Shown: in pieces, positions 42,847-45,497 of the stretch
Numbering within the stretch: the stretch's first letter is position 1
Layout of the letters: each line of letters starts with the position of its first letter
Assembly: GCF_965641715.1 (NCBI RefSeq)
Contig: NZ_OZ282453.1
Length of the DNA: 64,000 bases
Reading direction: 5' to 3' (one strand)
DNA from: Escherichia coli
GTDB taxonomy: Bacteria > Pseudomonadota > Gammaproteobacteria > Enterobacterales > Enterobacteriaceae
Notes under the pieces: model-generated
Database searches by the model: none
What the model was told of the DNA's origin: nothing
The model's input: only the letters and a program-made list of their open reading frames with translations
Position numbers and translations under genes: made by a program

Positions 42847-44085
42847 ATGGCTGACACTCGCCCTGAACGTCGCTTTACGCGCATTGATCGTCTCCCGCCC
42901 TATGTTTTTAACATTACCGCTGAACTGAAAATGGCTGCGCGTCGGCGCGGCGAAGATATTATCGATTTCAGTATGGGTAACCCGGACGGTGCGACTCCGC
43001 CGCATATCGTCGAAAAATTATGTACTGTGGCCCAGCGCCCGGACACGCATGGTTACTCCACTTCACGCGGCATTCCGCGGCTACGTCGCGCCATTTCCCG
43101 TTGGTATCAGGATCGCTACGACGTTGAAATCGACCCGGAATCAGAAGCCATCGTCACTATTGGTTCGAAAGAGGGCCTGGCGCATCTGATGCTGGCGACA
43201 CTGGATCACGGTGACACAGTGCTGGTGCCGAATCCAAGTTACCCCATTCATATTTACGGCGCGGTGATTGCCGGGGCTCAGGTACGCTCAGTGCCGCTGG
43301 TGGAAGGTGTCGATTTCTTCAACGAACTGGAGCGCGCCATTCGTGAAAGTTATCCGAAACCGAAGATGATGATCCTCGGCTTCCCGTCGAACCCAACCGC
43401 GCAATGCGTGGAACTGGAGTTCTTCGAAAAGGTTGTGGCGCTGGCGAAACGCTACGATGTGCTGGTGGTCCACGACCTGGCCTATGCGGACATCGTCTAC
43501 GATGGCTGGAAAGCGCCGTCAATCATGCAGGTGCCAGGTGCACGCGATGTGGCGGTCGAGTTCTTTACGCTGTCGAAAAGCTACAACATGGCGGGCTGGC
43601 GTATCGGCTTTATGGTTGGCAACAAAACGCTGGTCAGTGCGCTGGCACGTATTAAAAGCTATCACGATTACGGCACCTTTACGCCGTTGCAGGTGGCGGC
43701 GATTGCGGCGCTGGAGGGCGATCAACAGTGTGTGCGCGACATTGCCGAACAGTACAAACGCCGCCGTGATGTATTGGTTAAAGGGCTGCATGAAGCGGGC
43801 TGGATGGTCGAAATGCCGAAGGCTTCGATGTATGTCTGGGCGAAAATACCGGAACCGTATGCTGCCATGGGCTCGCTGGAATTTGCCAAGAAATTGCTTA
43901 ACGAAGCGAAGGTCTGTGTCTCTCCGGGGATTGGCTTTGGCGACTATGGTGATACGCATGTGCGCTTTGCACTGATTGAAAACCGCGACCGTATTCGTCA
44001 GGCGATTCGTGGGATTAAAGCGTTGTTCCGTGCCGACGGTTTACTACCCGCCAGCAGCAAACATATTCACGAAAACGCGGAATAA
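42847..44085 (+). CDS. alaC: Glutamate-pyruvate aminotransferase (PLP-dependent)
   Basis: 412-aa [26 protein letters not shown]...; class I aminotransferase with PLP lysine ([10 protein letters not shown]). Confidence 0.93.
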
Positions 44086-44104
44086 ACACCGACCTCAGAA
44101 ATGC

Positions 44105-44132
44105 AAACAGGAGCCTGATGGCTCCTGTTTTT
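44105..44132. terminator. Bidirectional rho-independent terminator between alaC and ypdK
   Basis: Hairpin aaacaggagcc-tgat-ggctcctgttt followed by ttt. Confidence 0.7.
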
Positions 44133-44149
44133 CATTGCACAGTTTGCTT

Positions 44150-44221
44150 TTAGATCATCAGGGCAAAAGTACCGGCCCAAACGATGACCATAAAAGAAAT
44201 GCCCATAAAGAAATATTTCAC
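44150..44221 (-). CDS. ypdK: Very small membrane protein YpdK (23 aa, GTG start)
   Basis: Minus strand reads gtg aaa tat ttc ttt atg ggc att tct ttt atg gtc atc gtt tgg gcc ggt act ttt gcc ctg atg atc taa = (M)KYFFMGISFMVIVWAGTFALMI; below the ORF-track size cut-off. Confidence 0.7.
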   Translation of the reverse strand: MKYFFMGISFMVIVWAGTFALMI

Positions 44222-44576
44222 TTTACATCTCTCCGCGTAATTGCTGTTACGCCTGAATGACTTCATTACACCTGATACAGTGAGTTGACACCGGGCAAAA
44301 CGACCTTAAAAGTCCTGTATTTTACCGTGGGCATCACCCCAGAATTCTGAGCTAAACTGCTCGAGACGGCGCTAATGTACGCCTAAAACTGAAACGAGAC
44401 AAGAGGCATTTTCTTATTTACTTTTAGTAACTTACAGGTGTCTCATATCGGCGACAGTTTAATTTCTGACGGTAATAATTAGAGATTCAGCGAAGGAAAA
44501 AACCTTAAGAAAAAAGCCATAAAAACCATGAGGTTATTATGGCTTATGTGAGGAGGTAAAGAGTCAGAGCAGTTTG

Positions 44577-45497
44577 TTAAATGTATAACGACGATTCTCC
44601 CACCGGGCGCGTTTTAAAGCGACGGTGGATCCAGAGGTACTGCTCCGGTGCGCGCATGATCTCTTTCTCGATAATCTTGTTCATATAGGCAGCGGCTTGA
44701 TTTTCATCTGTCGGGTAGCCTTCCATCTCTGGGGTGATGAACAAACGATATCCGCTGTAATCCGCTTTTCTTACCATCGTTACGGTCAACATGGCTGCGC
44801 CAGAGAGACGGGAGAGAACATAGGTGCCATTGGTTGTGGCGACATTTTCTACCGCAAAGAACGGCGCGAAGGAGCTGCCTTTACGACCATAATCCTGATC
44901 GGGAGCAAACCATACCGCTTCACCTTTCTTCAGTGCACTGACAATGCCGCGCAGATTATTTCTGCCGATCATCGCTTTGTTAGAGCGCATGCGACCACGG
45001 GTCTGCACCCATTCCATCAGCTGATTATTATGTGGACGATAGGTAGCCATCATTGGCTGACAAAGTCCCATCACGCGGCCGCCCAGTTCCAGCGACATAA
45101 AATGGACGCCGACAACCATTACGCCGCGATTTTGCATTTGTGCGCGTTTAAGGTTATCCAGCCCTTCAACATCAAACCATTTACGTACGCGACTGTCGGG
45201 CCAGAACCACGCCATGCCGGTTTCTACCAGCGCCATGCCGAGTGAACGAAAGTTTTCGGCAATCATCTTCTCGCGTTCTTCCGCAGAATGCTGCGGGAAG
45301 CAAAGTTCCAGGTTTTTACGGGCGATAGATTCACGCCGTTTCAGGAATGGTCGCGCCATTGCGCCAATACGCGTGCCGAGAAAGCAGAGAACAGGATAAG
45401 GAAGCTGTACCCAAAGCCAGAGTACACCAAGCCCAAACCATGTGAGCCAGTAGCGAGGATATAGAAACTCGCGGGAAAATTTGCATTGTGGAAACAT
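44577..45497 (-). CDS. lpxP: Lipid A palmitoleoyl-ACP acyltransferase (cold-induced), 306 aa
   Basis: ATG at 45497 gives MFPQCKFSREFLYPRYWLTWFGLGVLWLW...; track ORF extends 22 codons upstream. Confidence 0.9.
   Translation of the reverse strand: MFPQCKFSREFLYPRYWLTWFGLGVLWLWVQLPYPVLCFLGTRIGAMARPFLKRRESIARKNLELCFPQHSAEEREKMIAENFRSLGMALVETGMAWFWPDSRVRKWFDVEGLDNLKRAQMQNRGVMVVGVHFMSLELGGRVMGLCQPMMATYRPHNNQLMEWVQTRGRMRSNKAMIGRNNLRGIVSALKKGEAVWFAPDQDYGRKGSSFAPFFAVENVATTNGTYVLSRLSGAAMLTVTMVRKADYSGYRLFITPEMEGYPTDENQAAAYMNKIIEKEIMRAPEQYLWIHRRFKTRPVGESSLYI

Follow-up and report, generated by a model that had tools for sequence, protein, structure and literature searches.

The locus between alaC and lpxP of Escherichia coli raises the question of whether a minus-strand reading frame of only 23 codons is a gene and, if so, how it is expressed and what its product might do. 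We analysed a 64,000-nucleotide (64-kb) stretch of E. coli DNA (the window, to which all positions refer unless noted) and observed, on the minus strand at 44221-44150, a GTG-initiated ORF of 23 codons that closes with TAA at 44152-44150 and has the product MKYFFMGISFMVIVWAGTFALMI. Its codons read GTG (44221-44219) AAA TAT TTC TTT ATG GGC ATT TCT TTT ATG GTC ATC GTT TGG GCC GGT ACT TTT GCC CTG ATG ATC TAA. A preliminary description of the locus had claimed a hydrophobic, GTG-initiated 23-codon ORF on this strand, and both its start codon and its peptide, (M)KYFFMGISFMVIVWAGTFALMI, proved to be exactly as claimed. The two facing genes are:

44150..44221, minus strand: ypdK coding sequence, GTG plus 22 sense codons plus TAA, resting on sequence, RefSeq, NF033437 and conservation.
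42847..44085, plus strand: alaC (alanine transaminase), the convergent neighbour of ypdK, with a hairpin in common.

RefSeq/PGAP names the ORF 'membrane protein YpdK' (WP_010723117.1), and its feature table places the locus as that of K-12 ypdK, between alaC and lpxP and convergent with alaC. The NCBIfam equivalog NF033437 'YpdK', a curated model of 23 positions with a cutoff of 30 bits, matched at 57.5 bits (E = 9.4e-16), with residues 1-23 on model positions 1-23 and the alignment beginning at the GTG codon. YpdK is E. coli b4680. Secondary citations credit Hemm et al. 2008 with having seen tagged YpdK on an immunoblot. PMC3009722 counts ypdK among the 18 small membrane proteins that this study presented, and Table S1 of PMC10470546 gives the exact YpdK sequence, classed as a small membrane protein of 23 aa for which a transmembrane segment is predicted. 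The name ypdK used in the preliminary description therefore agrees with annotation, family model and literature alike. No Pfam family matched the YpdK peptide, and neither did any PDB chain. A 601-nt query around ypdK matched 5,422 of 5,426 complete E. coli genomes, where the features beneath it were alaC, ypdK and lpxP, and the 72-nt ORF alone was found at 100% identity in 4,771 records. Plasmid records matching ypdK were few (14 of 72,556), 13 of the 14 were typed non-mobilizable, and the matches shown include megabase-sized records consistent with mislabelled chromosomes; ypdK is thus apparently not mobile. The ORF had also been called easily missed, which holds historically but not now, since current annotation pipelines call ypdK routinely. 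The ORF is ypdK, a known gene annotated since 2008, and as a gene it adds nothing new. What is new is the regulatory anatomy around it, which is absent from Rfam 15, from the annotation consulted and from the literature searched.

Conservation had been proposed as a check on the ORF, and we ran it on loci anchored on alaC, chosen in place of ypdK to avoid bias. The comparison covered 80 species-representative loci from Enterobacteriaceae, Erwiniaceae, Yersiniaceae and Pectobacteriaceae, one of which ends 50 nt past alaC and is uninformative. A full-length ypdK homolog was present in 75 of the 79 informative loci, every time convergent with alaC; together with the RefSeq E. coli locus (L001), this gave an analysed set of 76 loci with ypdK among 81 examined. 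By this comparison, ypdK is conserved across Enterobacteriaceae, Erwiniaceae and Serratia. The stop-to-stop gap between alaC and ypdK is mostly 36-88 nt, with exceptions of ~150 nt, 211 nt, ~700 nt and 1.6 kb. The ORF has 23 codons in 56 loci and 24 in the other 20, the added C-terminal residue being E, K or A.

Variation among the homologs follows the reading frame. Across 69 distinct ypdK coding sequences, mean column entropy at codon positions 1, 2 and 3 was 0.58, 0.19 and 1.13 bits. No substitution was seen at Y3, M6, G7, S9, G17, T18 or F19 and hardly any at K2, W15, L21 or M22, yet the codons for G7, S9, G17 and T18 vary freely in their third base (1.4-1.8 bits). By the Nei-Gojobori method, pN/pS was 0.276 in the ypdK frame. 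The two remaining sense frames gave 1.14 and 2.22, a pair of antisense frames gave 1.73 and 2.23, and the codon-mirrored antisense frame gave 0.46. Synonymous variation inconsistent with coding selection had been named as a sign against the ORF, and the ratio observed instead favours coding. These data show that the ypdK ORF is under frame-specific purifying selection.

The same block could be conserved as a small non-coding RNA or a 3' UTR element in which an untranslated ORF is incidental, since a transcript of ~265 nt has the size of an sRNA, its 5' part is long and structured, it carries a terminator hairpin and the ORF is tiny. However, the variation has a three-base periodicity, pN/pS is low in the ypdK frame only, and the GTG, the spacing of the GGAG and the 23-24-codon length are invariant. 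In addition, RNAalifold gave no consensus structure over the 5' part of the ORF, and ypdK is catalogued in the literature as a validated small protein (PMC3009722; Table S1 of PMC10470546). We consider a purely non-coding role extremely improbable, and ypdK almost certainly a real coding gene with the anatomy described here.

Two elements just upstream bear on where translation begins:

44231..44234, minus strand: Shine-Dalgarno GGAG, 9 nt 5' of the GTG, with GGAG or GAGG at a fixed distance in all species.
44223..44228, minus strand: out-of-frame ATG-TAA 'start-stop', 1 nt ahead of the GTG, its ATG kept in most Enterobacteriaceae.

All 76 ypdK loci start with GTG. Because GGAG lies only 2 nt from the out-of-frame ATG, it serves the GTG. 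Outside E. coli, in other genera, the out-of-frame ATG opens a 26-codon frame-shifted ORF; coding in the frame opened by this conserved ATG was considered and rejected, the ratios in frames +1 and +2 being above 1, with no purifying selection. Synonymous sites are nearly saturated (pS 0.61) and a single G-to-A change would give ATG, so the universal GTG suggests that selection keeps the weak start codon itself. The true product might instead be a 38-aa protein from the in-frame ATG at 44266, beginning MKSFRRNSNYAERCKVKYFF..., as the ORF lister reports this longer ATG-initiated frame and ATG is the commoner start codon. Yet the ATG at -15 codons is confined to Escherichia, most other genera carry a stop 1-2 codons 5' of the GTG, and the NF033437 alignment begins at the GTG. 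The extension would, moreover, fall within the leader, including the covariation-supported helix P5 described below. We rejected the extended form as not conserved and give it next to no credence; the 23-residue product from GTG is the one we carry forward.

Upstream of the ORF, ypdK appears to have a promoter of its own, separated from lpxP by a terminator:

44374..44402, minus strand: predicted sigma-70 promoter of ypdK, with -35 TTGTCT (44402-44397), a 17-nt spacer, -10 TACATT (44379-44374) and discriminator AGCGCC.
44510..44545, minus strand: lpxP intrinsic terminator, AAGCCATAA...TTATGGC followed by TTTTTT, from the fold of 44590-44403, upstream of the ypdK promoter.

The promoter is shared by 67 of the 76 species, irrespective of which gene lies upstream, and sits ~150 nt ahead of the GTG. 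Its consensus comprises an A/T-rich tract, cTTGTC/TTGTAA, a 17-18-nt spacer, TACATT/TAAATT and AGCGCC. G+C-rich discriminators go with growth-rate or stringent control, and the AGCGCC discriminator hints at such control of ypdK. Transcription is predicted to start near 44367, giving a leader of ~146 nt. A published UV tiling array (PMC3009722 File S3) reports a same-strand transcript at 2494795-2494997, compared with 2494943-2495014 for ypdK; its start, a low-resolution boundary, thus lies 148 nt upstream of the ypdK GTG. The same file gives an increase of log2 1.06 for this ypdK-strand transcript after UV. We also considered a proximal promoter, GTGTCA-16-TGTAAT, ~50 nt upstream of the GTG, and rejected it: GTGTCA is the 3' strand of the covarying leader helix P2, and the published transcript start lies further upstream (PMC3009722).

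Expression of ypdK mainly by read-through from lpxP would make it a cold-inducible member of an lpxP operon, and in Escherichia, Citrobacter, Salmonella and Enterobacter-type genomes lpxP is indeed the adjacent upstream gene, read from the same strand. However, lpxP has a strong terminator of its own, so ypdK is not simply lpxP read-through. The arrangement is also limited to these genomes: elsewhere the upstream gene varies by genus, and most genera have no lpxP there, although the promoter, leader and upstream region of ypdK remain conserved. Finally, the published transcript boundary falls at the predicted promoter and not further upstream (PMC3009722). We regard lpxP read-through as very unlikely to be the main source of ypdK expression. 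The conserved promoter, the transcript boundary and the lpxP terminator together mark ypdK as an independent transcription unit of ~265 nt, self-contained from its sigma-70 promoter and predicted start through leader and ORF to the hairpin that it shares with alaC.

This hairpin occupies the gap between the two convergent stops:

44105..44130, both strands: shared predicted bidirectional terminator hairpin, an 11-bp perfect stem with a 4-nt loop.

The hairpin, AAACAGGAGCC-TGAT-GGCTCCTGTTT at 44105/6-44130, folds at -21 kcal/mol on the plus strand (alaC) and at -22.5 kcal/mol on the minus strand (ypdK), with z = -3.75 each. It sits midway, the ypdK stop being 19 nt from the 11-bp stem and 22 nt from its G+C core, and the alaC stop (TAA ending at 44085, plus strand) equally far on the other side. 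The 18 nt given in the preliminary description thus agrees with the distance to the stem within the definition of the stem edge. Past the core, the tails are TTTTTCAT on the alaC strand (6 of 8 T) and TTTGCATT on the ypdK strand (5 of 8 T). A simple terminator scanner did not report the hairpin. We attribute this to A-U pairs at the stem base, which absorb the U-tract, and read it as a scanner artefact rather than as counter-evidence.

Among the alaC-anchored loci, a strong hairpin was present in every short alaC-ypdK gap. Its stems differ by clade (CAGGAGCC, CAGGCGCC, AAAGCGCC, AACGACAGG, GGGGCGAC and GGGTCAGG), a pattern expected if the structure and not the sequence is maintained. At least 4 T in 8 on both sides of the hairpin were found in 44 of 73 species; in several of the others, the hairpin picker drew A/T tracts into a longer stem. 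Enterobacteriaceae hairpins usually have T-tracts on both strands. Erwiniaceae keep a G+C-rich hairpin without a U-tract on either side, so that the reading as an intrinsic terminator does not extend to all ypdK loci; in Erwiniaceae the hairpin may be a 3' stabiliser or a non-canonical terminator. The Term-seq supplements searched contained no entry for ypdK or alaC. For E. coli and most Enterobacteriaceae, the sequence and its comparison between species support a hairpin with the shape of a two-way intrinsic terminator, and with it the earlier suggestion that alaC and ypdK share one.

Ahead of the ORF lies the ypdK leader, in which we modelled four helices:

44222..44367, minus strand: predicted ypdK 5' leader, ~146 nt, with helices P1, P2, P3 and P5.
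44362-44349, minus strand: P1, a hairpin in most species with varying register, 60-67% paired.
44340-44331 with 44291-44282, minus strand: P2, a long-range helix, 94.5% paired, 6 pairs changed on both sides.
~44326-44294, minus strand: P3, an inner hairpin in most species with varying register, 60-67% paired.
44252-44235, minus strand: P5, a hairpin ending directly before the GGAG, 91.3% paired, 5 pairs changed on both sides.

The four-helix model was tested on 31 Enterobacteriaceae leaders aligned with MAFFT, which is blind to structure. Paired cells amounted to 79%, compared with 30-47% when the partners were slid, and the covariation score was 0.353 compared with 0.06-0.15 for the slid controls; none of 500 shuffles reached the observed values. 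Realignment of 55 sequences with a covariance model agreed with the structure-blind alignment. Across 55 sources, the covariance model found one match per locus, always directly upstream of ypdK, and in the window it gave a single match, at 44210-44373 with 129.9 bits. Natural deletions in three loci (L002, L008 and L011) drop P3 and retain P2, and the whole E. coli ypdK transcript folds at -89.8 kcal/mol (z = -4.56). P2 and P5 are maintained by compensatory changes, above the slid and shuffled controls. A search of 43900-44700 on both strands against Rfam 15 returned only chance-level matches, all far below the gathering scores.

The leader of Erwiniaceae and Serratia differs. Its 5' hairpin covaries, 5 pairs having changed on both sides, and its invariant 5' CGAUCCU could pair either with an internal GGGAUCG or, through UCCU, with the Shine-Dalgarno AGGA; because all three segments are invariant, covariation cannot choose between these pairings.

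Several further structures were considered around the start of translation and rejected. A helix of UUCAUU (5' of P5) with GAUGAA (between the Shine-Dalgarno and the GUG) would have bulged out the Shine-Dalgarno and accounted for the conserved ATG. Its pairing reached 66.4% compared with 65.0% in shuffles and did not exceed that of the slid controls. Pairing of GAGAUG near the Shine-Dalgarno with codons 7-9 gave a covariation of 0.108 compared with 0.106 in shuffles, and RNAalifold found no consensus structure around the ypdK start codon. A conserved leader peptide or attenuator was likewise set aside, as uORFs in the leader vary from genus to genus in presence, length and sequence; the uORF of E. 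coli (44337-44266) is lineage-specific.

Dual-function RNAs such as SgrS/SgrT, Spot 42/SpfP and AzuCR both encode a small protein and act as RNA, and the ypdK transcript might do likewise, its leader also base-pairing with mRNAs or titrating an RNA-binding protein. The leader is twice the length of the ORF; some 50 Enterobacteriaceae conserve it, including unpaired stretches such as CUCUAUAAUCAG; its different counterpart in Erwiniaceae and Serratia is structured too; and no Rfam family matches it. On the other hand, the literature searched does not name ypdK as an sRNA or give it a target or binding protein, and the conserved structure could equally serve RNA stability or translational control in cis. 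We therefore hold a dual function to be unlikely.

The conserved DNA continues beyond the promoter:

44403..44480, minus strand: conserved upstream region, with an A/T-rich tract at 44420-44410, palindromes GTAAGTTAC at 44435-44427 and TGTCGCCGATATGAGACA at 44456-44439, and ATTATTACCG.

About 110 bp upstream of the -35 are conserved in ~45 Enterobacteriaceae with differing upstream genes. The palindrome TGTCG-N8-CGACA (44456-44439) is centred at about -80 and GTAAGTTAC (44435-44427) at about -64. This DNA is conserved in sequence and does not covary, which points to protein-binding DNA, and the palindromes are probably binding sites for a regulator protein, to be treated as candidates. The ~2-fold UV induction had suggested a LexA box or a CRP site; on inspection of the alignment, the spacing and half-sites misfit both, and no familiar regulator was recognised there.

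Seen as a whole, the 23-codon gene may be embedded in an undescribed regulatory unit of ~430 bp, made up of the promoter with its conserved upstream DNA and of the leader RNA. Taken with the alternative pairings in Erwiniaceae and Serratia and the GTG kept in 76 of 76 loci, this would place YpdK under tight, possibly switch-like post-transcriptional control or give its RNA a second, non-coding function. We find this plausible, if appreciably short of an even chance. Were it true, the ypdK leader would represent a new class of cis-regulatory or dual-function RNA.

The peptide itself has the features of a small membrane protein. Its Kyte-Doolittle mean over residues 4-23 is 2.15, and K2 carries its only charged side chain; at 23 aa, it falls within the 50-aa limit for single-pass small membrane proteins and has one predicted hydrophobic segment of bilayer length. 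Small membrane proteins as a class often modulate larger transporters or kinases, as the preliminary description had also remarked. Table S1 of PMC10470546 gives a TMHMM transmembrane segment at 4-21 with N-out/C-in topology, leaves its 'experimentally examined' column blank for this protein, and lists YpdK among the proteins screened as substrates of the RseP protease, with cleavage not detected. A lone Lys at position 2 would favour the N-in orientation, opposite to the TMHMM prediction. No partner of YpdK is named in the literature searched.

We propose that YpdK would form a single transmembrane helix, with Y3 and W15, both aromatic, at the membrane interfaces, and that G7, S9, G17 and T18, its invariant small residues, would pack against a larger protein of the inner membrane. 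Its synthesis may be held low or regulated by the GTG start, the structured leader, the upstream palindromes and the G+C-rich discriminator. YpdK would then be a single-helix accessory subunit or modulator of that larger protein, a role that we put forward tentatively as our best guess at a mechanism and consider somewhat doubtful. The argument from a packing face is weak, because the conserved residues, by inspection of the conservation list, do not fall on one helical face.

A rival proposal concerns the neighbouring pyruvate-sensing histidine kinase YpdA, of which YpdK could be a dedicated modulator as MgrB is for PhoQ. The LytS-type kinase gene ypdA stands divergent beside alaC in 63 of the 76 ypdK loci, all four informative loci without ypdK likewise have no ypdA nearby, and small membrane proteins are described, at the level of the class, as regulators of sensor kinases (PMC11429745). 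However, ypdA is missing within 3 kb in 13 species that carry ypdK, Salmonella enterica subsp. arizonae among them. The association is also confounded by common ancestry, and the shared terminator ties ypdK to alaC and not to ypdA. An obligate partnership was rejected on this incomplete synteny, and the co-occurrence is suggestive at most; we judge a dedicated role in YpdA signalling improbable.

In conclusion, the locus is very likely best explained as a real gene, translated into an inner-membrane protein of 23 residues and one helix, with its own transcription unit. Its importance is modest: few E. coli microproteins lacking an assigned function are conserved as deeply as ypdK. The residues G7, S9, W15, G17, T18 and F19 offer handles for further work, as do the independent promoter with its candidate regulator sites and the structured leader, and the universal GTG start suggests that dosage matters. 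If the leader proves regulatory, it would be a new RNA element widespread in enteric bacteria.

Compared with the YpdK family NF033437, the ORF described here is identical in sequence, length, GTG start and position between alaC and lpxP, and is the type member. Among the characterised single-helix small membrane proteins, AcrZ acts with AcrB, MgrB with PhoQ, MgtS with MgtA and PitA, KdpF with KdpABC and CydX with cytochrome bd, and YohP causes membrane depolarisation. YpdK likewise has no more than 50 aa and one hydrophobic helix and was missed by classical annotation; it differs in being shorter, with no similarity to them in sequence and no partner found in the literature searched. Table S1 of PMC10470546 places YpdK in one list with characterised proteins of this kind, several of which are cleaved by RseP, whereas YpdK is not. 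As a transcript, ypdK resembles mgtS, azuCR, sgrS/sgrT and spf/spfP, being likewise a short stand-alone RNA that carries a microprotein ORF and is mostly untranslated. Its leader differs from theirs in having no Rfam match and no regulator, ligand, sRNA partner or target named in the literature searched, while its structure is conserved, as in small mRNAs with long regulatory leaders. Lastly, bidirectional terminators are prevalent between convergent E. coli genes (Ju et al. 2019, cited in bioRxiv 10.1101/2022.10.23.513370), and here too, one stem-loop that can form in both transcripts lies midway between convergent stops. Members of that class are described in the citing preprint (bioRxiv 10.1101/2022.10.23.513370) as mostly unlike intrinsic terminators; in contrast, the alaC-ypdK hairpin resembles a classical intrinsic terminator on both strands.

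We observed that ypdK begins with GTG (window 44219-44221) in 76 of the 76 loci that carry it, spanning three families, and that its synonymous sites are close to saturation across these loci. Since GTG has been kept throughout at this level of synonymous change, the comparison implies that the weak start codon is itself under selection. One match to the 72-nt ypdK query, in E. coli O157:H7 SS17 (NZ_CP008805.1 3281173-3281243; match H22), covers 71 nt and has a 1-nt indel within the ORF, and is nonetheless annotated as ypdK; a frameshift allele and a sequencing error are the two readings of this indel.

An ATG codon lies just before the GTG:

44223-44228, minus strand: out-of-frame ATG, a start-stop in E. 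coli, 4 nt 5' of the ypdK GTG

This ATG is conserved in most Enterobacteriaceae. With a stop codon directly after it, it reads ATG-TAA or ATG-TGA (a start-stop) in E. coli, Buttiauxella, Cedecea and others; in other genera it begins a frame-shifted ORF of 26 codons. A 1-nt deletion brings it in frame in five species (L019, L023, L024, L032 and L042), giving MNVKYFF.... Two structural explanations for its conservation, a Shine-Dalgarno-bracketing helix and pairing with codons 7-9, were tested and rejected.

The predicted ypdK leader RNA is ~30 nt shorter in three loci, namely L002 (4363-4493), from the GTDB representative that bears the label E. coli SCPM-O-B-8794, and L008 and L011, from two Pseudocitrobacter genomes. 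In these leaders the inner hairpin P3 is absent and the enclosing long-range helix P2 is retained. The E. coli leader also contains a small reading frame, whose presence, length and sequence are all unconserved in other genera:

44266-44337, minus strand: upstream ORF (M)MPTVKYRTFKVVLPGVNSLYQV, 22-23 codons, inside the E. coli leader

A different leader type is found in Erwiniaceae and Serratia, and in Erwiniaceae it has fixed segments:

Alignment A4, near positions 7-13, 109-115 and 133-139: three invariant segments in the leaders of the Erwiniaceae loci L055-L074

Here the invariant 5' CGAUCCU could pair either with the invariant internal GGGAUCG or, via UCCU, with the Shine-Dalgarno AGGA. 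Because all three segments are invariant, covariation is unable to choose between these pairings, and the alternatives are suggestive of a possible two-state switch in Erwiniaceae.

At the 3' end of ypdK, each stem arm of the terminator shared with alaC (window 44105-44130) reads CAGGAGCC, 5' to 3' on its own strand, so each transcript has a Shine-Dalgarno-like AGGAG within the hairpin. The stem sequence is common to most Enterobacteriaceae genera, an unusually high conservation for a terminator. Several records in the PLSDB plasmid collection (H24-H27 and H29) are 1.4-5.4 Mb in size and bear the chromosomal alaC-ypdK region, and are therefore probably chromosomes or chimeric assemblies filed among plasmids. 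Locus L078, on a contig that bears the label Pseudomonas resinovorans DSM 21078 (NZ_AUIE01000007.1), is without ypdK and ypdA, and its AlaC shares 91% identity with that of E. coli over the best segment. This seemingly high value for Pseudomonas may reflect the restriction to the best segment, horizontal acquisition of the gene, or a contig that is mislabelled or a contaminant.

On the other side of ypdK, lpxP has its own terminator:

44510-44545, minus strand: strong lpxP intrinsic terminator, AAGCCATAA...TTATGGC then TTTTTT, ~30 nt past the lpxP stop codon

The ~110 bp 5' of the ypdK -35 (window 44403-44480, minus strand) are kept in ~45 Enterobacteriaceae, independent of the upstream gene. 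This conserved region holds two palindromes:

44456-44439, minus strand: palindrome TGTCG-N8-CGACA
44435-44427, minus strand: palindrome GTAAGTTAC

Both palindromes are probable transcription-factor sites.
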